From a virus (taxonomy: Duplodnaviria; Caudoviricetes), in the IMG/VR virus record IMGVR_UViG_3300021963_006531, positions 1 through 60,088 of that record: DNA of 60,088 nucleotides; one strand, given 5' to 3'. Each line of letters opens with the position of its first letter. Within the stretch, counting starts at the first letter, position 1. Made by a program: the position numbers and the translations under genes. This document shows positions 31,734-51,001 of the stretch, piece by piece. The notes beneath the pieces were generated by a model that saw only the letters and a list, made by a program, of their open reading frames with translations, was not told where the DNA came from and did not search any database.

Positions 31734-32216
31734 ATGTGGCAATTTCAATGGATGTTAAGTTTAATTCCAGATAGTATTTTTGTTTGGATAACTTACATTT
31801 TGATGATCATTGGTGCTGGATTATACGTGGCCAGCAAATTAGTTAAATGGATTCCATTGATGGGACAATATAAACTCCCAGCAGAATTAATTGGTATTAT
31901 AGTATTATTAGCTGGTACATATCTATTTGGTGGCTACGGAGTAGAGATGAGCTGGAGAGATAAAGTAAAGCAACTTGAAGAAAAAATTAGAATAGCAGAA
32001 GAAAAAAGTGCTCAAGTTAATACCGTTATACAAGAAAAAATTGTATATAAAACTAAAGTTATTAAACAAAAAGAAATTGAGTACATTGATCGAATCAAAG
32101 AAGTAGAAAAAATAATCGATGCAAAGTGCGAAGTTGATCCTGTTGCTATTGACATTCTTAACAAAGCGGCTAGTGATCCAACTAAATCAGAAACTAATTC
32201 AGGAGAAACAAAATGA
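31734..32216 (+). CDS. Membrane-anchored coiled-coil protein, probable i-spanin (Rz-like)
   Basis: Two hydrophobic helices then a coiled coil with one Cys; sits between the endolysin and a lipoprotein. Confidence 0.6.
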   Translation: MWQFQWMLSLIPDSIFVWITYILMIIGAGLYVASKLVKWIPLMGQYKLPAELIGIIVLLAGTYLFGGYGVEMSWRDKVKQLEEKIRIAEEKSAQVNTVIQEKIVYKTKVIKQKEIEYIDRIKEVEKIIDAKCEVDPVAIDILNKAASDPTKSETNSGETK

Positions 32217-32476
32217 AATATTTGCTTGTTTCGCTTGTATTTTTGACCGGCTGTTCTACTACAGTTCCAGTAACATTAAAATTTCCTACTATTCCTCCAG
32301 AGCTTGCAGAAGCATGTCCTGAACTAGAAAAAACTCCAGAAGGAACTACTCAGTTAAGCAAAACTTTAGAAGTCGTAGTGAGGAATTACAGTAAGTATCA
32401 TCAATGTAAAACCAAAGTTGATGCCTGGAACGAGTGGTATCAGGAAAACAAGAAAATTTACGATTCAATTAAATAG
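32213..32476 (+). CDS. Lipoprotein, probable o-spanin (Rz1-like)
   Basis: Lipobox LTGC, Pro-rich segment and Cys pair; ATGA overlap with the Rz-like gene. Confidence 0.65.
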   Translation: MKYLLVSLVFLTGCSTTVPVTLKFPTIPPELAEACPELEKTPEGTTQLSKTLEVVVRNYSKYHQCKTKVDAWNEWYQENKKIYDSIK

Positions 32477-33612: not shown

Positions 33613-33861
33613 ATGAAAAAATTAGTAGCATTGTTAGTAGCTTCAGTATTTGCTATGCCAATTATGGCAGCAGATGCTCCTGCGAAACCAGAAACCAAAA
33701 AAGTTTGTGTAATGCAAAAAGATGCTAAAACTGGAAAAGAAAAAGAAGTTTGTAAGAATGTAAAAATCCATAAAAAGCATGAAGGCACAAAACCTGAAGA
33801 TGTTAAAAAAGCTGAACCAGCTAAAAAAGAACCAGCTAAAAAGGACGCTGTTAAGAAATGA
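33613..33861 (+). CDS. Small exported Lys-rich protein
   Basis: Sec signal peptide MKKLVALLVASVFAMPIMA, Cys pair, EPAKK repeat. Confidence 0.7.
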   Translation: MKKLVALLVASVFAMPIMAADAPAKPETKKVCVMQKDAKTGKEKEVCKNVKIHKKHEGTKPEDVKKAEPAKKEPAKKDAVKK

Positions 33862-34250
33862 AAAAATTCCTTATTGCAATCAGTATTGTTAGTTTAACAG
33901 GCTGTGCTAGTATTAAGGAAATTATCCCTAGCTTTTCAGATCCAAATCAATCTGCTAAAATTATTGATGTAAGACAAAGTGTGGAGCAACTAGATTGCAA
34001 ACAAGTCCATGCTCCACAAGCTAAAAAAATCAAAGATAATTTAGATTGGTTTGAATTATATTCTGTAAGTAAAGGATGGCGTCAAAATGATGTTCTCAAA
34101 TTGATTAAACCAATGCAAGAAACTGTAGATGAATTTTACAAGCGTAGTACTGCTGAAAAACAAGGTTCAGATGCATATTGTGAAATCAAAAAGAAAGTCA
34201 TGAAAGTTCAAGCTGAAAAAGCCGCAACGGCAATATTAGGGAGATTCTAA
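33858..34250 (+). CDS. Lipoprotein of unknown function
   Basis: MKKFLIAISIVSLTGC lipobox. Confidence 0.75.
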   Translation: MKKFLIAISIVSLTGCASIKEIIPSFSDPNQSAKIIDVRQSVEQLDCKQVHAPQAKKIKDNLDWFELYSVSKGWRQNDVLKLIKPMQETVDEFYKRSTAEKQGSDAYCEIKKKVMKVQAEKAATAILGRF

Positions 34251-35419: not shown

Positions 35420-35926
35420 ATGGCATTAACAATAATAAAATATCCAAATCCAATATTAGATGAAGTCATGCCAGATTTTGACTTTGAAAATCCAATAATG
35501 GATCCTAAAGAATTAGAAATAGACATGCTGGCTTGCATGTTTGCCAATAATGGGATTGGGCTTGCGGCTCCGCAAGTAGGTATCAAAACTAGAGTGTTTA
35601 CCATGGGACATGTTTCCATGCCTGAAAATAGTTTTGCAGTATTCAATCCAGTTATTGTTGATTGCAGTACTGATATACGTATGCTAGAAGAAGGATGTTT
35701 AAGTTTTCCTGGAGTCTACGCTAATGTTAAGCGACCATCGTGAATAGTTGCTGAGTACTTTGATAAGAATGGAGAAAAGAAAACAGATAAACTTGAAGGG
35801 TATAACTGTGTTTGTTTCTTACATGAAATGGACCACTTAAACGGAGTAGTTTTTAAGGATAGACTTAGTCAGTTAAAATGGGCGTTGGCTATTAAAAAAT
35901 CAAAGAAGGTAAAACATTATGCTTGA
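35420..35926 (+). CDS. def: Peptide deformylase interrupted by one in-frame TGA at 35741-35743 (readthrough, nonsense allele or sequence error)
   Basis: GIGLAAPQVG and EGCLSFPG precede the TGA. The same frame continues IVAEYFDKNGEKKTDKLEGYNCVCFLHEMDHLNGVVFKDRLSQLKWALAIKKSKKVKHYA to a stop at 35926, supplying the HExxH motif (168 codons including the TGA). Confidence 0.9.
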
Positions 35927-38195
35927 ACCAAACGAAGAATTAGAACAAATTTTTGAAAATGCTGTACTGACAGCCATAAACCATAAACACCAATACATTA
36001 CATTAGAGCATTTCCTCTATAGTATGGTTCGTAATCCAACTTTTAATCGTATTCTAACTGACTATGGTATTAAAGTTGACGATTTAGTTTCTAAATTAGA
36101 AAATTATATTAACAACGAGCTTATTAGTATTGTTGACATAGATTTAAATTCTAGACCAAAGAAAACAAATAGCGTAGAAAGAATGCTTAACAGAGCATTC
36201 ACACAAACACTATTTGCTGGAAGAACCACTATTGAACCATTAGATTGTTTCCTAAGCATATTACACGAAAAGAAAAGTCATGCTGCCTTCTATCTACGTA
36301 GTTCTGGGATTGAAAAAGACAAATTTATTGATTACTTAAACAAAGAGAATTTAAATCAATTGGGTGAAGAAAATGAAAATGTTCCTGAAAACAAACTAGA
36401 AGCTATCATTAATAATTTCTGTACCAATCTAAATAACAAGGTTAAACAAAAACAAATTGACCCAGTTATTGGTCGTGATAAAGAAATTGAGGAGATGCAA
36501 TTAGTACTTGCGAGACGTCACAAAGCCAATGTTATGTTGATTGGAGATCCAGGTGTTGGTAAAACTGCGCTTGCAGAAGGGTTAGCACGTAAGATTGTTG
36601 AAGGCAATGTCCCTAAGTTTATTCAAGACCATACAGTTTATACATTAGATATTAGTTCATTGCTTGCTGGTTCTAAGTATCGAGGAGATTTTGAAGAACG
36701 TCTTAAAACTGTACTTACTGCTATACAAAAACGTAAGAAAGCAATCTTGTTTATTGATGAAGCGCACATGATGAACGGTGCTGGTGCATCAAGCGGTCAA
36801 AGTAATGATATGGCAAATATGTTAAAACCTGCTTTAGCCAAAGGCGGATTTAAGGTTATTGCATCTACTACATGGGAAGAATATCGTAAACACTTTGAAA
36901 AGGATCGTGCGCTAATGCGTCGATTCCAACGTGTAACTATTGACGAGCCTAATGAAGAAACATGTATTAAGATTCTAAAAGGTCTTCGCAAATATTACGA
37001 AAAACACCATGGTGTTAAGATCACCAATCAAGCTATTCTTGATAGTGTCAAATATTCTATCAAATATATGAGTGATAAAAAGCTACCTGATAAGGCCATT
37101 GACTTGATAGATTGTGCATCAGCACGTTTTAAAGTTAAAGATGAAGAAGGCGGAGTAGTTGATCACGATGAGATTGTATTTGAAGTGGCAAAGATTACAG
37201 GACTCCCCTTGGAACAGATTGCCGCAAAAGAAACCAAAGTCTTACATGATTTAGAAACAAGTATTAAGTCGGAAGTATTTGGACAGGATACAGCAGTTGA
37301 ATCATTGCTAGACAAGATTTACATTGCACAAGCTGGTTTGAAATCACACAATAAGCCCGTTGGTAGTTTCTTATTTGTAGGACCAACTGGTTGTGGTAAA
37401 ACTGAAACTGCAAAGGTACTATCTGAAAAAATGGGTGTCAAACTTATTCGATTTGACATGAGTGAATTCCAAGAGAAACACTCCGTTGCTAAATTTATTG
37501 GTGCTCCTCCAGGATATGTAGGTTTTGAAGATAACGCAGGACAGTTAATTACTACTCTGCAAGAAAATCCAAATTGTGTATTATTGTTAGACGAAATTGA
37601 AAAAGCACACCCAGATGTAAGTAATGTATTACTTCAATTAATGGATAACGGTTTCGTAACTGGGTCCAACGGTAAGAAAGCAGATGCACGTAACGCTATT
37701 CTTATTATGACCAGTAATCTAGGCGCCGCTGATGGTGAGAAGAAGAACATTGGATTTGGTAATCAAGATAAGTTAGGTACTACTGACGAAGCGGTCAATA
37801 AATTCTTTGCTCCTGAATTTCGCAATCGTTTAGATGGCATTATTAAGTTTAAGAAACTTGAACATAGTGTTATGATTAAAGTAGTAGACAAGTTTATCAA
37901 AGAAATGAATTCTTTAGTTTCTGATAAAAATGTGTTTGTACAGTTAACTGATAGCACTAAAGAATTCTTAATTGAAAAAGGATTTGATCCTAAGATGGGT
38001 GCTAGACCAATGCAACGAGTAATTGATGATAAAATTAAGCGTCCTCTAAGTAGAGAGATCTTATTTGGTCGATTAATCAACGGTGGTATTGTACAAGTAG
38101 CGTATGTAAACAATGATCTAGTATTTGAATATATGGATCCACTACCAATTGCACCAAGTGTACCAGTTCAAGATGAAGAAATCATTGAAGATTAA
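35919..38195 (+). CDS. clpA: ATP-dependent Clp protease ATP-binding subunit ClpA
   Basis: Clp N-domain (HQYITLEHFL), AAA1 GDPGVGKT/FIDEAH, AAA2 GPTGCGKT/LLDEIEKAHPDV, IGF ClpP-docking loop, MGARP; no ClpB middle domain. Confidence 0.93.
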   Translation: MLEPNEELEQIFENAVLTAINHKHQYITLEHFLYSMVRNPTFNRILTDYGIKVDDLVSKLENYINNELISIVDIDLNSRPKKTNSVERMLNRAFTQTLFAGRTTIEPLDCFLSILHEKKSHAAFYLRSSGIEKDKFIDYLNKENLNQLGEENENVPENKLEAIINNFCTNLNNKVKQKQIDPVIGRDKEIEEMQLVLARRHKANVMLIGDPGVGKTALAEGLARKIVEGNVPKFIQDHTVYTLDISSLLAGSKYRGDFEERLKTVLTAIQKRKKAILFIDEAHMMNGAGASSGQSNDMANMLKPALAKGGFKVIASTTWEEYRKHFEKDRALMRRFQRVTIDEPNEETCIKILKGLRKYYEKHHGVKITNQAILDSVKYSIKYMSDKKLPDKAIDLIDCASARFKVKDEEGGVVDHDEIVFEVAKITGLPLEQIAAKETKVLHDLETSIKSEVFGQDTAVESLLDKIYIAQAGLKSHNKPVGSFLFVGPTGCGKTETAKVLSEKMGVKLIRFDMSEFQEKHSVAKFIGAPPGYVGFEDNAGQLITTLQENPNCVLLLDEIEKAHPDVSNVLLQLMDNGFVTGSNGKKADARNAILIMTSNLGAADGEKKNIGFGNQDKLGTTDEAVNKFFAPEFRNRLDGIIKFKKLEHSVMIKVVDKFIKEMNSLVSDKNVFVQLTDSTKEFLIEKGFDPKMGARPMQRVIDDKIKRPLSREILFGRLINGGIVQVAYVNNDLVFEYMDPLPIAPSVPVQDEEIIED

Positions 38196-39349: not shown

Positions 39350-39433
39350 TTTCAATCCCGTAGGTTTTAAAATAAATACATGATGCAAAGCCGTCAAGTA
39401 TATTTGCGGCTATATAATCAGTAGAGAAAAATA

Positions 39434-39781
39434 ATGAAATTACTTGAATTCTTCAGCAAAGCAAACTCGGATGATGATGACGCTAAGATTGAGACCGATC
39501 TAAAAAAAGATTTAATGGGCTTTATTCTTGACGATGATGAACTATACAAAGAACACATTCTTCCCCTTGTATCAAAACTTAAAAAAGGCAAGGATGTTGA
39601 AAAGGAAGATTTCATGAAAGCAATCAATCAAGGATGCTTAAAGTTCTATAAAGAAAAAGAGTTTAAAAAAGATCCTAACAAAATGTTCCCAATTAAGATG
39701 CGAAAGGAAATGGCAGGAGATTTATTAACCATCAATACCAAAGGCTCAAAAAAAGATGAAAATTCAAGAACTACTGATTGA
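39434..39781 (+). CDS. Hypothetical protein with capsid-targeting-like N-terminus (MKLLEFF)
   Basis: First gene after TAAATA at 39373-39378; N-terminal motif shared with downstream genes. Confidence 0.7.
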   Translation: MKLLEFFSKANSDDDDAKIETDLKKDLMGFILDDDELYKEHILPLVSKLKKGKDVEKEDFMKAINQGCLKFYKEKEFKKDPNKMFPIKMRKEMAGDLLTINTKGSKKDENSRTTD

Positions 39782-40142
39782 GAGTATTATAAAGCCTGAC
39801 TTATTGAACATGTTCCTAAAACATTGTTCTGAAGAATTAGGACTCGAATCTTTGCCTGAGATAAATCTTGTTGATGATAAACAATACTCCATTGATCATA
39901 AATCTTTTGGAGGTTATCAACCGGGAAAGCAATCAATTATATTAGCTACCAAAGATAGACACCCTGTAGATATTTTTAGAACATTGGCACATGAACTAAC
40001 ACATTATAAACAAGATTTAGATGGACAATTAGAAGATGATAATGTAGGCGACACTGGTAGCCCACAAGAAAATGAAGCCAATGCAAGGGCAGGAATAATA
40101 ATGCGTAATTTTGGTCAGAAGTTTCCAGAAGTATTTGAATAA
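39756..40142 (+). CDS. HExxH zinc-metallopeptidase-like protein with capsid-targeting-like N-terminus
   Basis: MKIQELLIES; RTLAHELTHYKQ and downstream E-x-EANA-x-AG. Confidence 0.7.
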   Translation: MKIQELLIESIIKPDLLNMFLKHCSEELGLESLPEINLVDDKQYSIDHKSFGGYQPGKQSIILATKDRHPVDIFRTLAHELTHYKQDLDGQLEDDNVGDTGSPQENEANARAGIIMRNFGQKFPEVFE

Positions 40143-40150
40143 GGTCCGAT

Positions 40151-41167
40151 ATGCGTATTAAAGAATTATTTGAAGGAGGGTGGGATACCACAAAAACACA
40201 GAGTACAGAGTTAACACCTTCTGTAGTACGTGTGGCCCTTGGTGTGGTAGATCAATTTGTTAAAGACTTCAATAATTATACTAATTCACAAGGTATACCT
40301 CCAATACAGCGTGGTAAGCCAACAGGTAGTACTGCATACTATGAGCAAGACGAAGTAGAAAAACCAGATAACATTTACGGCGACATTGATCTTCAAATGA
40401 TTGCACCAATCAAAGAAAATGAAACAAATGCACAATTTACCAGTTACTGGAATAATTTAACTGATCAATTTGCAAAAAGTGGTCAAGTAAATTATATAGA
40501 TACCAGTGAAAGTAAACCAGGACATCCTATTATTCAAGTTGGACGTGATCAATTTGTACAAGTAGATTTTATGTGGCATCCAGGTAAATTAGCTAGATGG
40601 GGCGCGGCACGTGTAACTCCAGAGCGTGGCGTTAAAGGTATGTTATTTGGTAATATGTTTAGTGTTTTTGGTGAATTATTAGACATGAGTATACAACATG
40701 CTGGAGTACAATTAAAAGTTGTTGATGATCAACGTGTTCCATTTAGTAAGCAAAAAGGAACACAATTGATAACTGTTACTATTGAACCAGAAACGTTTGT
40801 ATTAGATACATTTAAATATCTTGCAAAAAGGATGGGTATTGATAATCCTAAAATTGATCCTTTGTTGTCAAAATTTCCTGGTAATAATATAAATGATGTT
40901 AAAATTTCCACATTAGTAAACTCTGTTAAAGGATTTGCTGCCAGTGCTCAAGCAAATGGAATGTTTGGTAAAAATGATTTAAGTAATTTTGCGTCAGGAC
41001 AGGATTTCTTAAATAAATTTTTGCAAAGATATGAAGAAAAAGCTATGATAGATGTACAAGGCAAAAAACGTGACAAAGCAACAACCCCAGAGGCACAGGC
41101 ACGTGCAGAAGCAGATAAACAAAAGATACTAAGTGGTCTTGAAATGGTTAAAGGATTATTCCAATGA
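40151..41167 (+). CDS. Pol-beta-superfamily nucleotidyltransferase with capsid-targeting-like N-terminus
   Basis: MRIKELFEGG; PTGST...YGDIDLQM...VQVDFM (GS, DxD and third Asp). Confidence 0.7.
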   Translation: MRIKELFEGGWDTTKTQSTELTPSVVRVALGVVDQFVKDFNNYTNSQGIPPIQRGKPTGSTAYYEQDEVEKPDNIYGDIDLQMIAPIKENETNAQFTSYWNNLTDQFAKSGQVNYIDTSESKPGHPIIQVGRDQFVQVDFMWHPGKLARWGAARVTPERGVKGMLFGNMFSVFGELLDMSIQHAGVQLKVVDDQRVPFSKQKGTQLITVTIEPETFVLDTFKYLAKRMGIDNPKIDPLLSKFPGNNINDVKISTLVNSVKGFAASAQANGMFGKNDLSNFASGQDFLNKFLQRYEEKAMIDVQGKKRDKATTPEAQARAEADKQKILSGLEMVKGLFQ

Positions 41168-41541
41168 GAGCAAGAGAATTTGTAAATGAGGCGACAGAAA
41201 AGAAAATAACAAATAGGCAGGGCCAATCTCTTGCTGGTTTGAACGTTTATACTGACGCTGAAAAAAGAGATGCAACTTATGTATCTTATAGATTGGGAAT
41301 GGCTGTAGCAGGAACAGATGGTGAAATTGTTCCAGATACTGATGCTAGGAGTTGGATTGGCAAACAAAAATCAACACACCCTTATACTCCTGAAGAACAG
41401 GAAATGCTCAAAGTAGCTTACAAAGTAGTTGGTGCAGAATATACAGATTTGACAAAGGGCGATATGAAAAGTCGAGAACTAAAAACTACCAATACTGTTA
41501 GTCCTGTAGCAAAAATTAAAAAGAACAAGTACGGTGTATAA
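41164..41541 (+). CDS. Hypothetical protein with capsid-targeting-like N-terminus
   Basis: MRAREFVNEA; ATGA coupling. Confidence 0.7.
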   Translation: MRAREFVNEATEKKITNRQGQSLAGLNVYTDAEKRDATYVSYRLGMAVAGTDGEIVPDTDARSWIGKQKSTHPYTPEEQEMLKVAYKVVGAEYTDLTKGDMKSRELKTTNTVSPVAKIKKNKYGV

Positions 41542-42374
41542 TGAAAATAACTGAACTATTATTTGAAAGTGGGAAACGACTTGCCAAGCAAGGTATTGAA
41601 ATATCTAGAGTAGACAAAGTTGCCTTTCTAAAAGCCAAATCTATTTTAGATCCAATACTGAAAAAAGCTAAACTAAAGGCTGGTTGGACTGCTGGAGGTG
41701 CTGGTAGTTTTGATCCTGAACATCCTTATGGTGGCGGTGGCAGAGATGACAGTGGTGACATTGATATCATGATAGATCCAGAAAATCTTTTAAGAAGTTT
41801 TCCACCAAACATTGAAGAATATAATAGAGCAAGTCCAAAACCACTTGGTCCAAAAGCTATGGCTAACACATTAGCTGATCCAAATAAAAAAGCAAGATTA
41901 GAATTAGCTGCCAGTAAATGGGCATTGGCAACTTATATGACTCAAAATGGACTTCCAACTGATCCAGGAACACTTACTGTAGAATATAGTGCTGACGGTA
42001 AAAGTCATTCAGTAGACTTAATTGTTCGTCCAGAGAGTGCATGGGAATTACATGCACATGATTTCACTAGGGATCCTGAAATGAAAGGCGGACAACTGTT
42101 TACAGACGTGTATCCAACATTGGTTAAACTAGCCAGCAAATCTACTTTTGTAGATCCAAAGACTGGAGAAGAAAAAGGAAGTTTACAGTACAGTCCAGAT
42201 AGAGGACTAGTAGATAGAGAAACTAATCAAGTGGTTGCTATCAACAAGAACGATATTGCAAAAATACTTTTAGGACCACAAGCTACTGCAAGAGATATGT
42301 CTAGCATTTCTGGCATTAGAGACGCTCTAAAAAATGATCCAGCAAAGTTAAGTCAAGTTTTCCCTCAAAGTTAA
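41541..42374 (+). CDS. Second Pol-beta-superfamily nucleotidyltransferase with capsid-targeting-like N-terminus
   Basis: MKITELLFES; GGAGSF...SGDIDIMI...HSVDLIV. Confidence 0.65.
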   Translation: MKITELLFESGKRLAKQGIEISRVDKVAFLKAKSILDPILKKAKLKAGWTAGGAGSFDPEHPYGGGGRDDSGDIDIMIDPENLLRSFPPNIEEYNRASPKPLGPKAMANTLADPNKKARLELAASKWALATYMTQNGLPTDPGTLTVEYSADGKSHSVDLIVRPESAWELHAHDFTRDPEMKGGQLFTDVYPTLVKLASKSTFVDPKTGEEKGSLQYSPDRGLVDRETNQVVAINKNDIAKILLGPQATARDMSSISGIRDALKNDPAKLSQVFPQS

Positions 42375-42391
42375 ACAAATAAATACATATT

Positions 42392-45028
42392 ATGAACTTA
42401 TTTGAACTGTTTAAACCTGTTAAAAACATTATTATGGAAGGCATTGACCATCCAGAAGACCTCATTATTTCGCAAGGTAGTGCAGGTGCCGACAGAGTTT
42501 TGGCAGATTTATCCAGCTTACAAAAAGATCCAAGTACAATCAGTGTTAAATGGGACGGGTTTCCAGCAGTAGTGTTTGGTAGAGATAGTACAGGCAAACT
42601 TGTTTTCATGGACAAACACATGTATGACAAGGTAGTCAAAGGTGCTATGGAATTTATGTCCATTAAAGATTATGACATATCTAGAGAAGCTAATCGTGGC
42701 AACCTTTGGGAAACAGAAAGTGCATTGCGTCCTACATTAGATAAAATTATTCCTAACGTAAAAGATCAATATTGGATGGGAGACTTGATGTGGACTGGTA
42801 CTCCTAAAACTTCTGATGGCTACTTTGTTTTTAAACCTAACACCGTAGAATATCGTGTTAAAATTGATGATACTCCTGGACGTGGCAATACATTAAGCGA
42901 TCAAATCGCACGTAGTATTGGTGGTATTGCGGTACATACTTTTATTCCTGGTCTTGGTCAATCAGACCAACCATTGATTGGCTTAAAAGGTTTAAGAGAA
43001 AACGAAGGAATTGTTTTTCTTGTAGGAGAAATGAGAGACAAACCAAAAGTTGGAATTAATTCAGCTTTATTAAATCAAACTAAGGCTATTATTAGTCAAC
43101 ACAGAACAGCCGTTGATAAATTTATTTCAGATCTAACAGCAATGAAGGGCAAAGCAGTTATTACTGCCATGGGGCCTTTTATTACACGTATGCTTGAAGA
43201 AGATGATATATCTGGTAATATTGTTCCAAGATTTTTAGAATTTCTAAAAGAGCGTCTAAATGACACTGCACAAAATAAATTTTTAGGCGCTAAGAAAGAC
43301 GGTTGGTTATATCAAGAACAGGGCGGTGGTCCAGGACTATTAGGTATTTGGACAATGTGGGCCGCAATTACAGAATTAAAAACTCACATAAAACAACAAA
43401 TTGACACACAGCAACAAGGTAGTGAAATTATTGCTATAACTGATGGTGTTAATGCACACGAAGGTTATGTATTTGGTTCAGGAAAAGACAAATTAAAATT
43501 AATTGATCGTTTAGGTTTTAGTCGTGCTAATTTTGCTAAACATCGTGTACCAGATGATGAAATAGAAGCAAAGAGCAAAATGCCAATGGCAACTTTTTGT
43601 TTTGGTCGTATGAATCCTCCAACACTTGGTCACGGACTTGTGATACAAAAAACTTTAGAAGTAGGTGGTGAAAATTCTTTTATCTTTTTAAGTAATAGCC
43701 ACGACGCTAGTGAAAATCCAATTGATCCAACTACTAAAGCACAATTTGTAGCGCAAATATATCCTAACGCAGCCGACAAACTTGTACAAGATTTTGTACA
43801 AGGACCAATATATGCAGCCAATTGGTTATATAGTAAAGGTTTTAGAAATATGACATTTGTTGCAGGTAGCGATAGATTAGGAAAAGAAAAAGGTAGTATT
43901 GAAAAACTTTTAACCAGTTGGAACAGTGGTCCAATACGCTCCACAGATCCTGCAGGTGCAAGAGAGCATGTTGTTATTAAATTTGAGAGTAGCGGTCAGC
44001 GTGATCCTGATTCCGAGGGGGTGACCGGTTACAGTGGAACAAAAGCTCGCCAAGCGGCGGAAACTGGCAACGAGCAGTTATTCCAGAAATATACAGGTGT
44101 TGGTCCTGACGTCGTTGTAAACGGCAAAACATTATATCAAGCAACAAGAGAAGGTATGGGGATTAAAGATGAAAAACCAACAGCCCAGTCATCTCCTGTT
44201 AAGCAACCTGCTCAACCCAATTTACAAGTAACTAAAAAAGTTCCAGGCAAGGCTCCAATTAGTAAGGAAGTAGATTCTATGAACGAATCAAAACTACGCG
44301 ACAAAGAAGATTTAAAAGCAAAACGTAAGGCTCTGCAAGATATCCAGATGGATAAACATACACATAAAGATCCAGAATTAAAAGCAGAACTAGCAAGAAG
44401 AAAAGCGTCTTTAGAAAAAGAAGCAAAGAAAATGAATCTGTCTGAATCAATCGTCCACGCATACGGTATTTTTGAAGAACAACAATCATTCTTAGACAAA
44501 ATAAAATCAGCTTTTAAAAGCCAAAGTCCTGTAAATGATAAAGTAAAGTATGGTGATACTGCTTATCCCAAATCACCTTTACAACCAGTAAGAGATAAAT
44601 TTCAATCAGGAACATTGGATGTTAATCCAGATAGTACCATTGGAAGATTAAACCAGCGCAATGCCGCAATAAAAGCAGCCGGTGATGAAGCCAATGAAGA
44701 TCGTGTTAAAATGGCTGCTAGAAAAAATGTGTCTGAAGCACCGATCCAAATGGACCCAGACAATCCAAACGATCCAATGGTCATGCCTCCTGGACTTAAC
44801 CCAGGCAAACTAAGTTATAGAAAAGCAAGAGCGGCTGCACAATTAGCAGACCTTGCACGGATGGCTGCTGAAGCAAATGAAAAAAATAGTGCTATAATGT
44901 GGGACTCAATCGTTAGACACTTTCCTGAATTAGAAACAAATATTCGTAGCATTCAACACGGACAAGACGAATTACAAAAATTAAGAAGCAAAGGCGGAGT
45001 GCGTAGTAGGGGCATAGACAAAATATGA
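42392..45028 (+). CDS. Fusion protein: ATP-dependent ligase-like domain, HxGH-type nucleotidylyltransferase and modular tail
   Basis: SVKWDGFP (KxDG motif I), MGDLMW, HEGYV (motif IV), KLKLIDR (motif V); then FGRMNPPTLGH...VAGSDR...SGTKAR. Confidence 0.7.
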   Translation: MNLFELFKPVKNIIMEGIDHPEDLIISQGSAGADRVLADLSSLQKDPSTISVKWDGFPAVVFGRDSTGKLVFMDKHMYDKVVKGAMEFMSIKDYDISREANRGNLWETESALRPTLDKIIPNVKDQYWMGDLMWTGTPKTSDGYFVFKPNTVEYRVKIDDTPGRGNTLSDQIARSIGGIAVHTFIPGLGQSDQPLIGLKGLRENEGIVFLVGEMRDKPKVGINSALLNQTKAIISQHRTAVDKFISDLTAMKGKAVITAMGPFITRMLEEDDISGNIVPRFLEFLKERLNDTAQNKFLGAKKDGWLYQEQGGGPGLLGIWTMWAAITELKTHIKQQIDTQQQGSEIIAITDGVNAHEGYVFGSGKDKLKLIDRLGFSRANFAKHRVPDDEIEAKSKMPMATFCFGRMNPPTLGHGLVIQKTLEVGGENSFIFLSNSHDASENPIDPTTKAQFVAQIYPNAADKLVQDFVQGPIYAANWLYSKGFRNMTFVAGSDRLGKEKGSIEKLLTSWNSGPIRSTDPAGAREHVVIKFESSGQRDPDSEGVTGYSGTKARQAAETGNEQLFQKYTGVGPDVVVNGKTLYQATREGMGIKDEKPTAQSSPVKQPAQPNLQVTKKVPGKAPISKEVDSMNESKLRDKEDLKAKRKALQDIQMDKHTHKDPELKAELARRKASLEKEAKKMNLSESIVHAYGIFEEQQSFLDKIKSAFKSQSPVNDKVKYGDTAYPKSPLQPVRDKFQSGTLDVNPDSTIGRLNQRNAAIKAAGDEANEDRVKMAARKNVSEAPIQMDPDNPNDPMVMPPGLNPGKLSYRKARAAAQLADLARMAAEANEKNSAIMWDSIVRHFPELETNIRSIQHGQDELQKLRSKGGVRSRGIDKI

Positions 45029-46254
45029 AAATTACACAATTATTAGAAGGCAGCAAGCCTCAAAAAATTCCTGCAAGTAAACCACGAAACTTTGTGGTCA
45101 AGAATCAGCAGACCAGTGGCGCTGGCTCACATAAAGACAAAAAGAAAGCAGCCAAGCAGGGTGATGTTAAGCATAAAAATAAAGACATGGAAATGTCTGA
45201 AGACCATTTAAACGAGTACGGCGATACTGCTAAAGGTCAGAAGATGCTGACTAAAGTTCAAAAACGTGCAGTAGATCGTGTAACAAGTAAACGAGCAGAC
45301 ACTGATCCTAAGTACGCTAAAAAGAATAGTGATACCGCTAATCGTGCTTGGGATAGAATGACAGACAAAGATTTAGAAGAAACTTTTGATGATGTTAAAG
45401 ATACTGTTGCAAAAGTTGGTGATAAAGTTAGCGACACCTTATCAAATATCTTACCAAAAGATATGCGACCTTTTGATAATGAAACAGCCGCAAAAAATGC
45501 CGCAACAAATTCTGCGGCATTTAAACCAGTTGTGAAGACTGCATCAGTAACACAAAAACCAATTAAAGAATCTAAAGTTTACGAGCAATATGTTGGCAAT
45601 GGCTCTAGTAAAAATATGCAAATGGCTGTTGACCAAGCCAAGATGCACGCCAAGATACAGGCTATGAGAGCAATACACGGTAACAATTTTCATGATAAAG
45701 AAATGGTTGCACATGAATTTGGAAAATTAGATATTCAAAGTGATGGTAAAGGCGGTTATAAAGTCAATGCTCCCATTACTGTACTACAACCAAAATCTAA
45801 TTCCATAGATAGCAGTCCAGCAACTAATAACATTTCTAACCCACCCAACAGTTATATGGATAGCAGTCCTGCTAAAGATAATGGAACAACTACTAGTAAA
45901 ATGTCTCCTATGGAAAGCATGGCAGACAGTATAGTTAAAGAAATGAATAGAAATCCAGACTTAATGAGTCAAAGCGATTATGATCGTTATCAACAAAGCC
46001 AAATGGATAATCAGAAACGCAATTTCAAACGTGACGAATTAGAACATGAACTTAGTCACGAAGACAGAGGTATGTATTGGGTTGTGGTTGCAAAAAATGG
46101 TAAATGGGAACATACTAAAGCACAGCCTAAACAAGAAGGTATGAATGCGGCCATGCGTTTGATTAGTGCATTGCATAGTAAATATCCAGGCATGCACTTA
46201 GGTATGCAATATCCTAATGGGCAAGTAGAAAATTTTGGAAAAGGTAGAAAGTAA
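45025..46254 (+). CDS. Modular low-complexity protein with capsid-targeting-like N-terminus
   Basis: MKITQLLEGS; Lys-rich patches separated by hydrophobic-x-E sites. Confidence 0.7.
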   Translation: MKITQLLEGSKPQKIPASKPRNFVVKNQQTSGAGSHKDKKKAAKQGDVKHKNKDMEMSEDHLNEYGDTAKGQKMLTKVQKRAVDRVTSKRADTDPKYAKKNSDTANRAWDRMTDKDLEETFDDVKDTVAKVGDKVSDTLSNILPKDMRPFDNETAAKNAATNSAAFKPVVKTASVTQKPIKESKVYEQYVGNGSSKNMQMAVDQAKMHAKIQAMRAIHGNNFHDKEMVAHEFGKLDIQSDGKGGYKVNAPITVLQPKSNSIDSSPATNNISNPPNSYMDSSPAKDNGTTTSKMSPMESMADSIVKEMNRNPDLMSQSDYDRYQQSQMDNQKRNFKRDELEHELSHEDRGMYWVVVAKNGKWEHTKAQPKQEGMNAAMRLISALHSKYPGMHLGMQYPNGQVENFGKGRK

Positions 46255-46255
46255 A

Positions 46256-46690
46256 ATGGACAAGTATCATTTAGCACTAAAGACAGCATTTGCTAGTGAA
46301 TATGCTTTTTATTTAAAGGCACAAAATTTCCATTGGAATGTAGAGGGAATGTTCTTTGAACAATTTCACAGTTTGTTTGGAAAAATTTATGAGGAAGTAG
46401 GTGATGTCATTGACGACTTTGCAGAAAATTTACGCAAAGTCAATGCTTATGCACCTGCTAGTTTTAGAAGATTCAGTATGCTCAGCGAAATAGATGACGA
46501 AACAGAAATCTTAGAAGCAACAAGTATGTGTGCTACCCTTCTAGCTGATAGTGAAAAAATGGAAGAGATTTTTAAAATCACTTATCAAATGGCAGAGGAT
46601 AATAGAGATTTTGGTCTAGCTAACTTCCTAGCAGAACGTCAAGATGCACATGCTAAACATAGTTGGATGTTAAGAGCCACGTTAAAATGA
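46256..46690 (+). CDS. dps: Dps / ferritin-like DNA protection protein
   Basis: YLKAQNFHWNVEG-x-x-F-x-x-x-H-x-LF...D-x-x-AE...H-x-KH-x-WML. Confidence 0.9.
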   Translation: MDKYHLALKTAFASEYAFYLKAQNFHWNVEGMFFEQFHSLFGKIYEEVGDVIDDFAENLRKVNAYAPASFRRFSMLSEIDDETEILEATSMCATLLADSEKMEEIFKITYQMAEDNRDFGLANFLAERQDAHAKHSWMLRATLK

Positions 46691-46983
46691 AACAGTACAG
46701 AGTCACTTCAGAAAATATAAACCTAAGTAGCGATGATGATTGCTATTTAGATCCAAACGATCCTATAAATGAAATCAAAGTATTACAGCATTTAGGTGGA
46801 ATCAATTCTGTAAGTAGACTACAAGAGTATCGCTTATCTCAGCAAGAAAGCAATATTAGTACTACTGCTAATGAAAATGCAAAGTTAATGAGGGAACACA
46901 ATATTAAACCTGGAACCCCTGAGTGGTTCCAACTTTGGTTTAGTTTACCGTATATGACTGGTGAAAAGAAGGTTGAAAAATGA
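46687..46983 (+). CDS. Hypothetical protein
   Basis: ATGA coupling at both ends; NIKPGTPEWFQLWF motif. Confidence 0.7.
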   Translation: MKQYRVTSENINLSSDDDCYLDPNDPINEIKVLQHLGGINSVSRLQEYRLSQQESNISTTANENAKLMREHNIKPGTPEWFQLWFSLPYMTGEKKVEK

Positions 46984-48044
46984 AAATACAAGATTTATTA
47001 GAGTTTGCTCCAACAGTGGATAAAGACTCAGCATTAGGAAAAGTATTAGGAAACCCTGATGTTCAAAACACTATTGACAAAATAGGTAATTCATTGTCCA
47101 ATGTATTCAAACCATCAGTTGAGAAAGGCGCCGATGTTGAACCTAAAAATACTGATAAGAAAACTTCAAAAAGTAAATCAAGTAGATCAGTGGATATTTC
47201 AGATATGGAGCCAGAATTTGAAAGACAAGGTATTAAAGACCCATTTGTAAAAAACGCATTGATGGGCAAGTTTCATCAAGAAGCAGGTGCAAAATTTGGT
47301 ACTACTGAGATTCCGTTTACTAACACATCAAATAAAAGAATTAAAGAAAAGTTACCGCAGTTAGCTGGTATGAATGATGACGAATTAAATGCACTTAAAG
47401 CAGATCCTAGAGCATTTTTTAATAGAGCATATGGCGGAGTATTAGATAATACTGGACCAGATGACGGTTACAAATTCCGTGGTCGTGGATTAACTGGATT
47501 AACTGGTAAAACAAATTATTCGGCTGCTTCACAAGCACTGTTTGGTGATGACAGATTAGTTAAAAATCCTGATTTACTTTTAGATCCTGAAGTAGACAAA
47601 AAGGCAGCAGTATGGTATTATAAACGTGCTGGTGCAGATAAAGTATCATTTAGTAATCAAGAAGACGCCAATATTTGGGCAATACACAAAGCTGGTGGTA
47701 AAGCCTATGCTCCAGGAACTAAGTTAGGAAATATTGCACTTGCTGATCTTAATAATAAAACTGGAAATATGACCAGTGGTACTGGCACTATGGTTGCTAA
47801 AGGCGGAGACAATACTGGCAAAATAATTGCAGGCAGTACTTTATTGGCTAAAGCAGATGAATTGATAAACAAATATAAAACAGAGTTGCCTAAATTTATA
47901 TCTTCAATTAGTGACTTATCTGGGGGTGAAGATGAAGTTGCTGTAATAATTAATGGTAAGAAAAAGAAATTTAAGAATAAAAAAGAAGCTGAACTAGCAA
48001 TAAAGTTAGCCAAAGATCAAGGACTTACAGTAGATTATGCGTAA
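46980..48044 (+). CDS. GH19/lysozyme-like hydrolase with capsid-targeting-like N-terminus (candidate virion-associated lysin)
   Basis: MKIQDLLEFA; HQEAG...DDGYKFRGRGLTGLTGKTNY...LVKNPDLL...AAVWYY. Confidence 0.75.
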   Translation: MKIQDLLEFAPTVDKDSALGKVLGNPDVQNTIDKIGNSLSNVFKPSVEKGADVEPKNTDKKTSKSKSSRSVDISDMEPEFERQGIKDPFVKNALMGKFHQEAGAKFGTTEIPFTNTSNKRIKEKLPQLAGMNDDELNALKADPRAFFNRAYGGVLDNTGPDDGYKFRGRGLTGLTGKTNYSAASQALFGDDRLVKNPDLLLDPEVDKKAAVWYYKRAGADKVSFSNQEDANIWAIHKAGGKAYAPGTKLGNIALADLNNKTGNMTSGTGTMVAKGGDNTGKIIAGSTLLAKADELINKYKTELPKFISSISDLSGGEDEVAVIINGKKKKFKNKKEAELAIKLAKDQGLTVDYA

Positions 48045-48681
48045 ACCAGAAGTTTATTTAGATATGGATGGTGTTATAGCAGACTTTTTTACAGAGTATG
48101 CTAAACTTGCTGGCATTGAAAATGGCAACTATAGAGATATACCTCCAGCAAAAACTGATCCAACATTGAACAAAATGATTGGAACAGACTTCTTTGCTAG
48201 ACTACCAAAATGTCCTAATGCAGACGCTCTAGTAGATATGATAGTGAAAACTTTTGGATACTATCATATCTGTTCAAGTCCTCTAAGAGGAGACTTTGAA
48301 AACAGTGAAAAACAAAAGAAGATTTGGTTAAAGAAGAATTTAAAGCATCAACCAACTGATGTTATCATTACACCTAATAAGGCCAAATATGCTGTTCAAT
48401 CAGACGGAACTCCTAATATACTAATAGATGACAGGGGTAGTAATATTAGTGCTTGGGAGGCAAAAGGCGGTATTGGTATCAAATATCAAGCAGATGAAGA
48501 TAGTTTACAAGTTGTCATTGACGGAATAAAAAGAGCCTTTCAAGTAATTAAAGGTGAACAGAAACACGAACCTCAAAAGCTACAAAGTTTAGATCGAAGT
48601 AGCGGCAACTTAATTGCGAAAAGTGGCGATGATGAAGAACACGGTTCTACTTCTAAGATACCAGGTAAGGAACAACAATGA
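48037..48681 (+). CDS. HAD-family 5'(3')-deoxyribonucleotidase-like phosphatase
   Basis: YLDMDGVIADF, ICSSP, K-x-x-W, NILIDD...NI-x-x-W-x-x-x-GG-x-GI. Confidence 0.85.
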   Translation: MRKPEVYLDMDGVIADFFTEYAKLAGIENGNYRDIPPAKTDPTLNKMIGTDFFARLPKCPNADALVDMIVKTFGYYHICSSPLRGDFENSEKQKKIWLKKNLKHQPTDVIITPNKAKYAVQSDGTPNILIDDRGSNISAWEAKGGIGIKYQADEDSLQVVIDGIKRAFQVIKGEQKHEPQKLQSLDRSSGNLIAKSGDDEEHGSTSKIPGKEQQ

Positions 48682-49490
48682 AAATTTCAGAATTATTAAC
48701 AGAAGCTGATATGCCTGAATCTCTAAAGGATATACCTGTGGTAAGTTTTGGTGATTATAAACTAACTGCTGGAGATGTTGCAGATGTATTACCGGGTGTT
48801 GGACCAGAAGATGTAATTGAGCAAGGAAAATATTTAAAAGATTTTCTTTCAACAAAAATTAAAGGCGATTATACAAGAGCAGATGCATTAATTGACATAG
48901 CAACGTTTTATCCAGCTTTTAGAATCAGCAAGTGGGCACTAGCGGCACGTGGTGGTGCAGGAGCCGCAGGTAAAGAAGTTGCCAAAGGAGCCTTAAGAAG
49001 AGAAGTTGGTCAACAGGTACAACAAAAAGCAGACATACTTCCCTCAATGAAAGACTCTAAAAAATCAGGATCAGGCGGAGTTTCGCCAATAGCTACTAAA
49101 ATAACATCTCCATCTAGAAAAAGAAAATATAAAGTAGGAGATCAAGTTCCAGTTGAAGTCAAAGGCAAACAAGAAGTGGGAGTCGTGTCTAATGTATTGC
49201 CTAATGGTTATGAAGTTGATATTAGTCATGTAAAAGATTCTCCGTCAAAATCAGTTAATATCCCTGAACCCATGTTTGAAGAAGCCAGCGCAGGCGCTAC
49301 TTCCGCAGGTAATATTGCCAGTACAGGGAATAGTCCTCATATAGCCGCAGGAACTCCAGCTGTTTTAAAACGATGGAGTGGGGAACCCGGAAAAATAGGA
49401 AAAAGCATTAAGCCTCCCAAAACAGAACCTCAAGATTCTGACGATAATCCTGTGACAAATCCCAAAGTTGGCAACAACTTAATTTCATAA
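48678..49490 (+). CDS. Hypothetical protein with capsid-targeting-like N-terminus
   Basis: MKISELLTEA; internal MFEEASAGATSAGNIA. Confidence 0.7.
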   Translation: MKISELLTEADMPESLKDIPVVSFGDYKLTAGDVADVLPGVGPEDVIEQGKYLKDFLSTKIKGDYTRADALIDIATFYPAFRISKWALAARGGAGAAGKEVAKGALRREVGQQVQQKADILPSMKDSKKSGSGGVSPIATKITSPSRKRKYKVGDQVPVEVKGKQEVGVVSNVLPNGYEVDISHVKDSPSKSVNIPEPMFEEASAGATSAGNIASTGNSPHIAAGTPAVLKRWSGEPGKIGKSIKPPKTEPQDSDDNPVTNPKVGNNLIS

Positions 49491-49513
49491 TAAATATAGT
49501 ATCGGAGAAATAT

Positions 49514-50926
49514 ATGCCTTTTAAGAGTAAAAAACAAAAAAGAACCATTGATGCGGCAGCACATAACCCTGCTTTTGCAAAGAAAGTAGGAATCAAGACC
49601 AGTGATGCTAAAAAAATGTCTGCACATGGCAAGGGTCAAACTAAGTTTGAAGAAGCTAAGGATACTGTAGAAAAAGATGAAAAAGGCAACGTCAAATCAT
49701 GGAAGCATGAGGGCGATTGGAAAAAATCAAACGACAAAGAAGGGCGTGGCAAAGTGACTAATTTAAGTGATAAAGCTCGTCGCAAGACAGAGAAATTAAG
49801 TAAAGCAGAAAAGGAAATGGCTGAAGCATTTGAAAATGCTATTTCAGAAGTTACTATTACTTCAGGCCCAAATAAGGGTAAGCAGTGGAGCCCAAAAAAT
49901 CCAGGACCAACAAATAAAAATTATAAAGAAATTGATGGCAATATACCAAGTCCACCAGATGGAGCAACTGCACCTCCTCCAGGATATAAGCCACCGCAGC
50001 CAAAGTCAAATAAAAGTTCGGCAGTAAATTCAGATGATGCAGAAATGACTGCTGAAGCAAAACAAACTTACGGTGGTAAAGGAAAACAAATGACTAAATC
50101 ACAACATGATGCTGATGTAAAGAAAAAGAAAGAAAAAGAAAAAATGAAAAAAATGGCTGAGGCATTTATTCAAATTGGCCGTTTAGAACAAATGATCTTT
50201 GAAGCTAAAAAGACTAAAAATAAAGAAGAGACTCCAAAAGAAGGCAATGCTTTCGGTGATGCTGTTCGTAAAGCTAAAGAAGACGGTATACAAAAAGGTG
50301 AAAAAGTCAAAGTAGGTGGCAAAGAATATCCAGTCAAAGAATCAAGCAAAGATAAAGAATGCAACCATACACCAAAAGGTAAAAAATGTCCAGTGCATGG
50401 ATTAAAAGAGTGCGGAATGTATGAAGGCAACGATGGTAATCTAGCTAACAATGCTAAACCATACGACAAAGTAACACGTGGTGATGTTATTGCTGGACGC
50501 TTGGGTAAAGACGAAATGGGTGGTAAGAAGAAAAACAAAAAAACTACTGAAACTTTTATGCCAGTAAAACCAAAACAACCTACACCATCTCCAATTGACC
50601 CAATCAAAAAAGGTTTTAAAAAAGTAGCTGATAAAATTCTAGATAAAGATCCAAAACCAAAAAGTGACATTGGGGATAAAAATATACCTGAACCAACTAC
50701 AAAACCTTTAGAAAAATCTTACGACGAATTTAATGAAGGATATACAATTAACGGAAAGAAAGTTTCTAAAGCTGCCTATGAAAAAGAAATGTCAAAAGCA
50801 GGAAAAGGAAAGAAAAAAGTAAAAGAAGGGTGGACTCATGATAGTTTAGCCGCACAACTTTTTGAAAACGGTGACGAATACGTTGTATCACTCCACAACA
50901 GATTGGCGAAACAGTTAAAAGGTTAA
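49514..50926 (+). CDS. Lys/Glu-rich modular protein, probable head-internal/core protein
   Basis: TAAATA (49491-49496) and GGAG upstream; many hydrophobic-x-E sites. Confidence 0.65.
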   Translation: MPFKSKKQKRTIDAAAHNPAFAKKVGIKTSDAKKMSAHGKGQTKFEEAKDTVEKDEKGNVKSWKHEGDWKKSNDKEGRGKVTNLSDKARRKTEKLSKAEKEMAEAFENAISEVTITSGPNKGKQWSPKNPGPTNKNYKEIDGNIPSPPDGATAPPPGYKPPQPKSNKSSAVNSDDAEMTAEAKQTYGGKGKQMTKSQHDADVKKKKEKEKMKKMAEAFIQIGRLEQMIFEAKKTKNKEETPKEGNAFGDAVRKAKEDGIQKGEKVKVGGKEYPVKESSKDKECNHTPKGKKCPVHGLKECGMYEGNDGNLANNAKPYDKVTRGDVIAGRLGKDEMGGKKKNKKTTETFMPVKPKQPTPSPIDPIKKGFKKVADKILDKDPKPKSDIGDKNIPEPTTKPLEKSYDEFNEGYTINGKKVSKAAYEKEMSKAGKGKKKVKEGWTHDSLAAQLFENGDEYVVSLHNRLAKQLKG

Positions 50927-50934
50927 ACCAATGT

Positions 50935-50960
50935 AACAGGGCACTAGTTGCCCTGTTCTT
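50935..50960 (+). terminator. Stem-loop terminator closing the late cluster
   Basis: AACAGGGCA-CTAGT-TGCCCTGTT followed by CTT. Confidence 0.75.
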
Positions 50961-50972: not shown

Positions 50973-51001
50973 TTGACATTGCATAACTACTCTGCTACAA
51001 T
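50973..51001 (+). promoter_or_regulatory. Sigma70-type promoter with extended -10
   Basis: TTGACA (50973-50978), 17 nt ending in TGC, TACAAT (50996-51001). Confidence 0.8.

Follow-up and report, generated by a model that had tools for sequence, protein, structure and literature searches.

In bacteriophage T4, the prohead protease gp21 is described as cleaving after L/I-X-E, and propeptides range from 7 residues in Alt to 65 in gp23 (PMC9026906). According to the same account, the first 10 residues of the internal protein IPIII are enough for targeting to the head, and within this capsid-targeting sequence (CTS) targeting depends on residues 4 and 7, and processing on residues 8 and 10. The internal proteins of T-even phages are reported to be highly diverse, with the CTS alone in common (PMC3012670), and Alt provides a precedent for a packaged, injected enzyme with a short propeptide (PMC9026906, PMC5512222). 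Here, we describe nine otherwise unrelated open reading frames (ORFs) that begin with a similar short leader and lie in one block (39434–50926) of IMG/VR virus record IMGVR_UViG_3300021963_006531, whose full 60,088 bases are referred to below as the window. We consider it likely that the leaders are T4-type capsid-targeting propeptides, to be cut after a glutamate, and it is probable that this phage delivers several enzymes to its host together with its DNA.

The locus is like the T4 genes for IPI, IPII and IPIII in that a short N-terminal leader with an L/I-x-E end stands on unrelated proteins encoded by clustered genes. It is unlike them in that the T4 internal proteins (IPs) are three small basic proteins, whereas here nine tagged genes share one block and encode mostly predicted enzymes of 115–878 amino acids (aa). 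Leaders are as short as 5 residues in relatives, and the lineage is a jumbo one, known here from sequence alone, with a DNA polymerase that shares only 42–49% identity with its counterparts in cultured jumbo phages. Among 68 T4 proteins, gp24 and Alt have the propeptides most like the leaders. No ADP-ribosyltransferase of the Alt kind was detected in the window, where the cargo is nucleotidyltransferase-, ligase- and hydrolase-like. Within the limited literature searched, we found no description of CTS-type leaders in jumbo phages of the T4 superfamily, and Nolan 2006 (PMC1524935) and Petrov 2010 (PMC2993671) contain no mention of internal proteins or a CTS.

In phiKZ-like phages, many head-internal proteins are cut after Glu by a diverged gp21 homologue, and the propeptides are thought to target them into the prohead (PMC5694885, PMC9026906). 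The ejection and inner-body proteins of phiKZ, 201phi2-1 and SPN3US are described as cut at S/A-x-E or A-x-E, most with propeptides of more than 100 residues; unlike these, the lineage studied here has L, I, V or F at P3 (the third residue before the cut) and leaders of 5–18 residues, which is the T4 type. A phiKZ-type assignment was tried for the window itself and rejected, because all nine leaders have L, I or V at P3 and are 5–16 residues long. For effectors whose packaging is predicted, the domain classes set out by Iyer et al. (2017; PMC5512222) include zincin peptidases, Pol-beta nucleotidyltransferases, GNATs, kinases and lysozymes. The domain repertoire of such polyvalent proteins overlaps with that of the block, fused forms occur in relatives, and gp053 of the cultured phage Atu_ph07 carries a Zeta-toxin-like kinase domain. 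Unlike polyvalent proteins, the domains here are mostly encoded by separate genes, each with its own leader; assignment to that class, which has 2 to 15 effector domains per polypeptide, was rejected because two recognised domains were found in ORF 42392 only.

Results

Nine unrelated proteins begin with a common leader

The nine ORFs, named here by their start positions, begin where the first-pass annotation of the sequence had placed them and with the residues it gave. All are on the plus strand, and all nine leaders begin at Met1. With a bar at the predicted cut, they read MKLLE|FFSK (ORF 39434; cut after residue 5, 39434–39448, uncertain because the second Glu is missing), MKIQELLIE|S (39756–39782), MRIKELFE|GGWDT (40151–40174), MRAREFVNE|A (41164–41190), MKITELLFE|S (41541–41567), MNLFELFKPVKNIIME|G (42392–42439), MKITQLLE|G (45025–45048), MKIQDLLE|F (46980–47003) and MKISELLTE|A (48678–48704). 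Predicted lengths are 8–9 residues, with 16 in ORF 42392 and possibly 5 in ORF 39434, and their common form is short and amphipathic, h-x-[E/D/Q]-h-h-x(0-1)-E, where h is hydrophobic. A second Glu had been said to follow in most cases, and ORF 39434 is where this fails. The P3–P1 triplets are LIE, LFE, LFE, IME, LLE, LLE and LTE, plus LLE at residues 3–5 of ORF 39434, so that P3 is L or I in eight of nine leaders; ORF 41164 has VNE.

The window contains 2013 ATG triplets on both strands (1292 plus, 721 minus). Only eight match the strict pattern M-[KR]-[ILA]-x-[EQD]-[LF]-[LFV]; all eight open long plus-strand ORFs that begin between 39434 and 48678, none is on the minus strand, and the motif is missing from the other 52 called ORFs. 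A loose pattern, M[KRN]xx[EQD][LF], is found 15 times on the plus strand and once on the minus strand. Nine of these matches are the ORF starts given above, including ORF 42392 (MNLFELF...IIME), which fits the loose pattern only; the other seven (4417, 41464, 42081, 47370, 50733, 58926 and, on the minus strand, 19138) do not coincide with the start of any called gene. Scored with a position matrix of the leader, 8 of the window's 60 ORF starts reached 8 bits or more, versus 0 of 325 internal Met residues. With the leaders removed, the best E value over the 36 pairs of the nine proteins was 0.54, in agreement with the claim that the carriers are unrelated. The leader pattern is real and far beyond chance.

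The leader is maintained at the protein level in relatives

The window is the entire record, a single contig without a terminal repeat, and its plus strand carries 58 of the 60 ORFs of a simple ORF call. It encodes very large tail-fibre-like proteins, DnaJ, peptide deformylase, a ClpA-like double AAA+ protein, the tagged block and a family-B DNA polymerase. Among 50,697 phage records, the best polymerase matches are jumbo phages: Sinorhizobium phage Phosso (49.2% identity), Agrobacterium phage Atu_ph07 (45.5%), Salicola phage SCTP-2 (42.1%) and the GAP32 group (approximately 42%). Against the same records, the block gave no DNA match by megablast and ORF 40151 gave none by tblastn at E ≤1e-3, so no cultured phage with the ORF 40151 protein was at hand. 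Judged from its polymerase and the absence of a DNA match to the block, the contig is part of the genome of an uncultured jumbo phage that belongs to the T4 superfamily.

Relatives were collected by an IMG/VR search with the 338-residue ORF 40151 protein, which gave 114 confirmed loci; the best 80 of these were kept, with 57–97% identity and contigs of up to 354 kb. An ORF 40151 homologue is present in 80 of the 80 loci, and closer relatives retain the whole block with order and leaders alike. In most of the 80 loci there is a three-gene module, all with leaders, that encodes a 41541-like protein, a member of the 40151 family and a DUF6267 protein (DUF6267 is the N-terminal half of ORF 42392).

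Leader identity among orthologues is 0.60–0.82 and is above that of the following 30 residues in five of nine families. Across 142 distinct leader DNAs, five Arg codons, all six Leu codons and three Ile codons are used at conserved positions, and this synonymous variety points to constraint on the peptide rather than on the RNA. Relatives with 44–48% G+C also retain the pattern. Alignment A1, of 42 ORF 40151 orthologues chosen from 57 distinct ones, has M1 and E8-G9-G10-W11-D12 invariant and residues 2–7 varying within the pattern (MRIKELFE, MKIRDIILE, MKIFEILRE, MRATEFLRE, MKVKDIIRE). The family also has long forms, with 36–136 extra residues between leader and enzyme; in every form printed, the leader remains at the extreme N terminus and [L/V]-x-E stands directly before GGWD. 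All 61 of the 61 listed DUF6267 orthologues with an N terminus have, as read by eye, a leader that varies in sequence and length but ends with h-x-E; a few small residues separate it from a conserved H-P/A/L-E-D motif. Distant ORF 41541 orthologues have leaders of 5–6 residues, e.g., M-x-L-x-E|GGN. Overall, leaders in relatives are 5–18 residues long and end with h-x-E at the domain border.

When whole contigs were scanned with the leader matrix at the same 8-bit threshold, 10 of 254 ORF starts versus 1 of 1203 internal Met residues scored in G003, 9 of 369 versus 0 of 1764 in G002, and 8 of 487 versus 0 of 1858 in G001. Because the matrix was trained on the window families, matches to their orthologues are circular, and the independent evidence consists of the internal-Met controls and the extra matches, that is, tagged genes outside the training families, which number two in G003, six in G002 and seven in G001. 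The extra tagged proteins include a GGACT plus GH19 wall hydrolase and a weak VanY-like protein. Tagged genes are scattered across the genome in G001 and G002. By eye only, the leaders of G001 resemble each other (MKINEIITE-like).

The homologues of ORF 42392 in cyanophage S-PM2 and pelagiphage HTVC008M start directly with the domain. As a separate observation, the HTVC008M locus (L002) has a DUF6267 homologue (3962–5194) and a cytidylyltransferase (6365–8155) that start MYNDLLVE|DKNTHLEHLED and MKTLKELL, which are faintly leader-like, and the tag may extend further into T4-like marine phages.

Leaders resemble T4 propeptides

The T4 N termini, taken from NC_000866, are MKTYQEFIAE for ipII and ipIII, MAKINELLRE for gp24, MELITELFDE for Alt, MNEPQLLIE for gp21, MLKEQLIAE for gp22 and a 19-residue form for ipI. 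A matrix built from the 61 distinct leaders of this lineage was used to rank 68 annotated T4 proteins of two stretches, with one register shift allowed. gp24 ranked first (18.6 bits), Alt second (13.7) and Alt.-1, which is a duplicate of the Alt N terminus, third (11.8), with ipIII and ipII sixth and seventh. Four of 12 T4 head-related proteins, namely ipII, ipIII, gp24 and Alt, contain the heptad h-x-E-h-h-x-E within their first 13 residues. The same heptad is exact in three window leaders, and most of the others differ by E to Q/D or by a spacing that is off by one residue; the exceptions are ORF 39434, where the terminal Glu is missing, and the 16-residue variant of ORF 42392. When the window leaders are shifted by a single residue, their I3 and L6 fall on the targeting positions of the T4 CTS, and their L7 and E9 on its processing positions.

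A gp21-family protease and a T4-like head module in the lineage

Peptidase_S77, the gp21 family, was found in four of the ten related contigs searched (G002, G003, G004 and G006), at 90–93 bits against a cut-off of 27 bits, and Atu_ph07 also encodes a member. The protease of the relatives aligns with T4 gp21 via His- and Ser-containing motifs. In G003 and G002 the gene order is T4-like: portal, acidic core protein, protease, scaffold and major capsid protein. The scaffold proteins start MLDAFKKLFE|SG in G003 (188436), MLDAFKQLVE|SG in G002 (202003) and MTTKIEELLE|N in G006 (L118:148–1350). Scaffold and core N termini in relatives also include MQNKFEQLLDYLINEE, and the protease starts MSFLLRE|S. 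The scaffold and protease starts resemble the cargo leaders, much as T4 gp22 (MLKEQLIAE|A) resembles the IP leader, and scaffold and cargo may share a docking site. The capsid protein has YLAE|SATAG approximately 20 residues ahead of a conserved RRVMPT segment, a predicted and plausible counterpart of the gp23 cut site of T4. A complex prediction for the G003-type protease (A3) with residues 1–40 of the 40151 family scored 0.01 against a mark of 0.32, was run without controls and counts neither way.

The lack of an S77 match in G001 was considered and set aside as an artefact: the contig break cuts the protease region away. G001 is labelled 100% complete, starts with the portal gene (1–2117) and ends within the capsid gene (353872–354096); it must be incomplete or else be a circular permutation in which a small gap remains.

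A second leader family in the cultured jumbo phage Atu_ph07

Atu_ph07 is a distant relative with an S77 protease and its own leader family, M[KR]W.QL.E, and is unlike the window phage in that it has no detectable homologue of ORF 40151. Its gp053–gp062 begin M[KR]W.QL[T/N/I]E, gp063 begins MRLFQLLE, gp043 begins MRLIDLLE, and gp199, which adjoins the portal gene, begins MKLTELFNPLTE. The eleven-gene array gp053–gp063 (NC_042013.1, 39484–50592) consists mostly of paralogues from a single family (phrog_12810/11975), with an additional Zeta-toxin-like kinase domain in gp053 and a tandem duplication in gp054. No internal leader relics were found in gp053, gp054 and gp063. Mass spectrometry of the virion is reported to have detected 131 proteins, and coding sequences (CDS) 31–76 form one of three virion-protein clusters, with 29 proteins found by this method (PMC6102473); gp043 and gp053–gp063 lie within CDS 31–76. 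The parts of that report used here do not describe leaders or cleavage. By analogy, a leader family within a virion-protein cluster is suggestive support for a capsid tag.

Predicted cargo

For ORF 40151 (40151–41167, 338 aa), AlphaFold2 run on the family alignment gave a confident model. It has a predicted local distance difference test score (pLDDT) of 88.6 and a predicted template modelling score (pTM) of 0.85, and the sole segment with pLDDT below 50 is residues 1–11. By VIA-align, it matched Pol beta (Z 9.8; 182 residues aligned, root-mean-square deviation 3.9), African swine fever virus Pol X (Z 9.2; 169 of 176 aligned), and Thermus PolX, TdT, Pol lambda and Pol mu (Z 8.2–9.3), with terminal RNA nucleotidyltransferases and cGAS-like enzymes lower (Z 5.3–8.4). 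Foldseek agreed weakly (E 2e-3 to 1e-2). G77-D78-x-D80 is invariant in the family, and the protein looks like a PolX-like Pol-beta-fold nucleotidyltransferase. Two nucleotidyltransferases had been proposed for the block; ORF 40151 looks like one (VIA Z 9.2–9.8), whereas the label of the second, ORF 41541 (41541–42374, 277 aa), depends on a GDIDIM-type motif read by eye, and this protein gave no family match by any tool.

ORF 42392 (42392–45028, 878 aa) had been called a ligase/transferase fusion and is better described as an RNA/DNA-ligase-like DUF6267 domain (residues 18–383) followed by a cytidylyltransferase-like middle (residues 393–602) and a low-complexity tail. The N-terminal half matches DUF6267 in Pfam at E 4.6e-33, and K53, D55 and G56 of its KxDG motif are invariant in alignment A2 (34 sequences). 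For the model of the first 392 residues (pLDDT 87.3, pTM 0.81), the top 22 VIA-align rows were all ATP-dependent RNA/DNA ligases, with a nick-sealing RNA ligase first, at a Z of only 5.5–7.9 and a Foldseek E of 0.09–0.7; from this model, DUF6267 looks RNA/DNA-ligase-like. Foldseek gave no match at E ≤0.001 for either the 40151 or the 42392 model, and phmmer of ORF 42392 against PDB sequences gave 0 hits. Residues 393–602 match cytidylyltransferase PHROGs (E 1.9e-31). The sole segment of the 42392 model below pLDDT 50 is residues 1–16, exactly the predicted leader. The low-confidence N termini of both models fit a detachable extension.

ORF 39756 (39756–40142, 128 aa) is a small HExxH protein; its reading as a metallopeptidase has weak matches only (phrog_87, E 1.3e-5; DUF6782 below the cut-off). 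ORF 46980 (46980–48044, 354 aa), read as a muramidase, is instead GH19/endolysin-like (phrog_181, E 1.7e-21; Pfam 24.9 bits, just below the 25.5 cut-off). Profile searches assigned no family to ORFs 39434 (39434–39781, 115 aa, a single Pfam match below the cut-off), 41164 (41164–41541, 125 aa), 41541, 45025 (45025–46254, 409 aa, charged and of low complexity) and 48678 (48678–49490, 270 aa).

ORF 48678 is a fusion, and its C-terminal 68 residues (203–270) are a separate tagged gene in G003 (118340–118576) and L007 (14949–15191). The junction, MFEE|ASAGATSAGNIAS (49272–49283), looks like a relic internal site. After the junction or leader, ASAGATSAGNIAS in the window and TATAGSTSASNIAS in G003 resemble the capsid segment SATAGSTSAGNVA past its predicted cut, and this C-terminal module may mimic the mature N terminus of the major capsid protein.

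Four block genes lack the leader: a ferritin/Dps-like gene (46256–46690, 144 aa), a 98-aa gene that starts MKQYR and is kept in relatives (46687–46983), a 5'(3')-deoxyribonucleotidase gene, NT5C (48037–48681, 214 aa), and the last gene of the block (49514–50926, 470 aa), the first 50 residues of whose product match "virion structural protein" PHROGs (E ~3e-4). All four are on the plus strand.

Promoter-like motifs and neighbouring genes

The motifs that had been proposed as late-type promoters are present as ATAAATA at 39372–39378, 42379–42385 and 49490–49496 on the plus strand, ahead of ORFs 39434, 42392 and 49514, respectively, while the full T4 consensus TATAAATA occurs 0 times. All three sites are kept at the orthologous positions in G003. 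The window has five copies on the plus strand (23906, 39372, 42379, 49490 and 51631), all at most 70 nucleotides (nt) upstream of an ORF start, and 0 on the minus strand, versus approximately 20 per strand expected in 60 kb by a hand estimate from base composition. Such a distribution would be expected if ATAAATA were a genuine promoter element and were avoided at other sites. The copy at 42379 ends 7 nt before the ATG, so that the mRNA would be nearly leaderless. In G003, ATAAATA occurs 35 times, with a copy at most 70 nt upstream of 25 of 254 ORFs; besides the three block positions, the sites include the tail-fibre-like giants and genes flanking the head module. This distribution favours co-expression of the block with structural genes.

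No sigma-70 promoter had been noticed in the block; 34 sigma-70-like sites were found in 38–52 kb, not above shuffled sequence (46.7 ± 6.9), and the best of the region lies just outside the block. This plus-strand site (50973–51001; TTGACA-17-TACAAT with TG, 11/12) is the start of the next transcription unit, toward the DNA polymerase gene. The proposed closing terminator corresponds to a hairpin with a 9-bp stem directly past the block (50935–50957); its T-run is on the minus-strand side only, so a plus-strand terminator is only partly confirmed.

Upstream of the block are genes for DnaJ (34527), deformylase (35420) and the ClpA-like double AAA+ protein (35919–38195, 758 aa). The deformylase ORF (35420–35743) has 107 aa and covers positions 3–107 of a 156-position Pfam model, versus 164–170 aa in relatives; it may reflect a truncation, a frameshift or an assembly error. 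Three small ORFs (32213–32476, 33613–33861 and 33858–34250) have signal-peptide/lipobox-like starts (..LTGCS.., ..SLTGCAS..), and have conserved counterparts in relatives; they may encode lipoproteins that are spanin-like or lie at the surface. The tail-fibre-like proteins at 1299, 11555 and 16306 (and 14693), including a 3418-aa giant, have a common N-terminal motif, ..INIG...NDGTGD.LR.AF, which is probably a common attachment domain.

Discussion

The reading of the leaders as capsid-targeting sequences, proposed from the window alone, is strengthened by the T4 propeptide architecture, by a portable tag that is kept at the protein level, and by a gp21-family protease with a T4-like head module in the lineage. 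We infer a route in which the tagged proteins would be made late, their leaders would dock them onto the prohead scaffolding core, the Peptidase_S77 prohead protease would cut after the terminal Glu of L/I/V-x-E, and the mature proteins would be freed inside the head, encapsidated there, and leave with the DNA at infection.

Several observations weigh against this reading. The leader of ORF 41164 has Val at P3 and that of ORF 39434 has no second Glu. In the T4 ranking, gp2 and UvsY came fourth and fifth, though they are not known gp21 substrates, while IPI, gp21 and gp67 scored low. E-G-G-W-D is invariant in the 40151 family, so the Glu could belong to the mature enzyme and not mark a cut. With four untagged genes within it, the block is not purely cargo, and one ATAAATA precedes the DNA polymerase gene. 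The window contains neither head module nor protease, so the machinery is known from relatives only, and six of the ten related contigs, all six of them fragments, gave no S77 match. The Atu_ph07 array is largely one paralogous family, so that its shared N terminus may be partly inherited. Finally, S-PM2 and HTVC008M have untagged homologues of DUF6267, the cytidylyltransferase and NT5C beside their replication genes, so such enzymes can work within the cell.

The similar N termini on scaffold and core proteins in relatives (MLDAFKKLFE|SG, MQNKFEQLLDYLINEE, MTTKIEELLE|N), together with the charged, low-complexity, core-protein-like character of ORFs 45025 and 48678, would also suit a role of the tagged proteins as parts of the prohead core or scaffold that are cut, degraded or expelled before DNA packaging and are not delivered cargo. 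T4 gp22, gp67 and gp68 are reported to be cut to fragments that leave the head, but those T4 proteins that have just one short propeptide, at the N terminus (IPs, Alt and gp24), are described as remaining there (PMC9026906). Several of the tagged proteins have confident enzyme folds in which catalytic-type motifs are invariant, which is hard to square with a throw-away scaffold, and we regard this role as improbable. A link to the genes upstream was also considered: DnaJ, deformylase, the ClpA-like gene, two unknown genes and the tagged block are syntenic in L009, L007, L013 and L057; L074 has the same order, but with one of the two unknown genes not recognisable. Unfoldases read short terminal tags, and the leader might mark proteins for unfolding, timed degradation or hand-over by the phage ClpA-like AAA+ unfoldase, whose gene lies with those for DnaJ and deformylase. 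Such a tag leaves unexplained the terminal L/I-x-E, the match to T4 gp24, Alt and the IPs, and the scaffold and protease N termini. Moreover, the tagged nucleotidyltransferase of distant relatives (L073, L077, L041 and L063) lies in other neighbourhoods with no nearby Clp gene, and tagged genes are dispersed over the G001 and G002 genomes; an unfoldase tag is quite improbable.

The small HExxH protein encoded in the block (ORF 39756) raises the question of a pro-sequence that this protein processes, given that zincin peptidases have been proposed as processors of packaged multidomain effectors (Iyer et al., PMC5512222); a related idea is a sorting signal for a membrane, a pole or a phage compartment. 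By inspection, however, the leaders are amphipathic, bear charges and contain no hydrophobic stretch as long as that of a signal peptide, HExxH orthologues are found in 13 of 80 loci while leaders are found throughout, and the cut-site pattern is gp21-type, not zincin-type, all of which makes sorting or zincin processing very unlikely. Still harder to credit is that the shared start is a nucleotide-level feature, either for translation initiation or coupling or as a recombination hotspot with gene conversion. Most tagged genes do abut or overlap the preceding stop without an obvious Shine-Dalgarno sequence, and the leaders are A/T-rich at the 5' end. Yet many synonymous codons are used over the 142 leader DNAs, the pattern persists at 44–48% G+C, the motif is missing from the other 52 window ORFs, and leader length varies from 5 to 18 while h-x-E stays at the domain border, making this explanation extremely unlikely.

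If the leaders are capsid-targeting propeptides, what the cargo might do can be considered from folds and motifs only. Counter-defence, put forward at first from the sequence, would be a hypothetical role. The cargo core, composed of the second nucleotidyltransferase-like protein, the PolX-like nucleotidyltransferase and the RNA-ligase-like/cytidylyltransferase protein, looks like a nucleic-acid end-repair set, and a role at entry would fit the cell-wall hydrolase (ORF 46980). A speculative and, in our judgement, rather unlikely extension is that the leader-bearing three-gene core is a virion-delivered kit for end healing and sealing, acting before phage expression on the incoming jumbo genome (nicks, gaps or nuclease cuts) or on host-cleaved tRNAs and RNAs. 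If true, it would be a pre-loaded version of the newly made Pnkp and Rnl1 of T4.

A system of this kind is known from T4. What is new here is its extent in a distant, uncultured jumbo clade, the enzyme-rich cargo, whose conserved core consists of nucleotidyltransferase and ligase-like proteins, the fact that leaders are very short in some relatives, and the fused precursors that keep internal h-x-E sites. The leader family of Atu_ph07 makes the idea testable on existing virion mass-spectrometry data. Proteins packaged in the head and injected are the first move of a phage in the cell, and to our knowledge very few are known outside T4, P1, N4 and the phiKZ group. If the capsid-targeting reading is true, the injected set of a large and mostly uncultured clade of jumbo T4-type phages could be read from metagenomes by a simple rule, an N-terminal h-x-E-h-h-x-E in a genome with a gp21-type protease. 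The cargo would then be mainly nucleic-acid enzymes and wall hydrolases, not small inhibitors, which would widen the roles of phage internal proteins.

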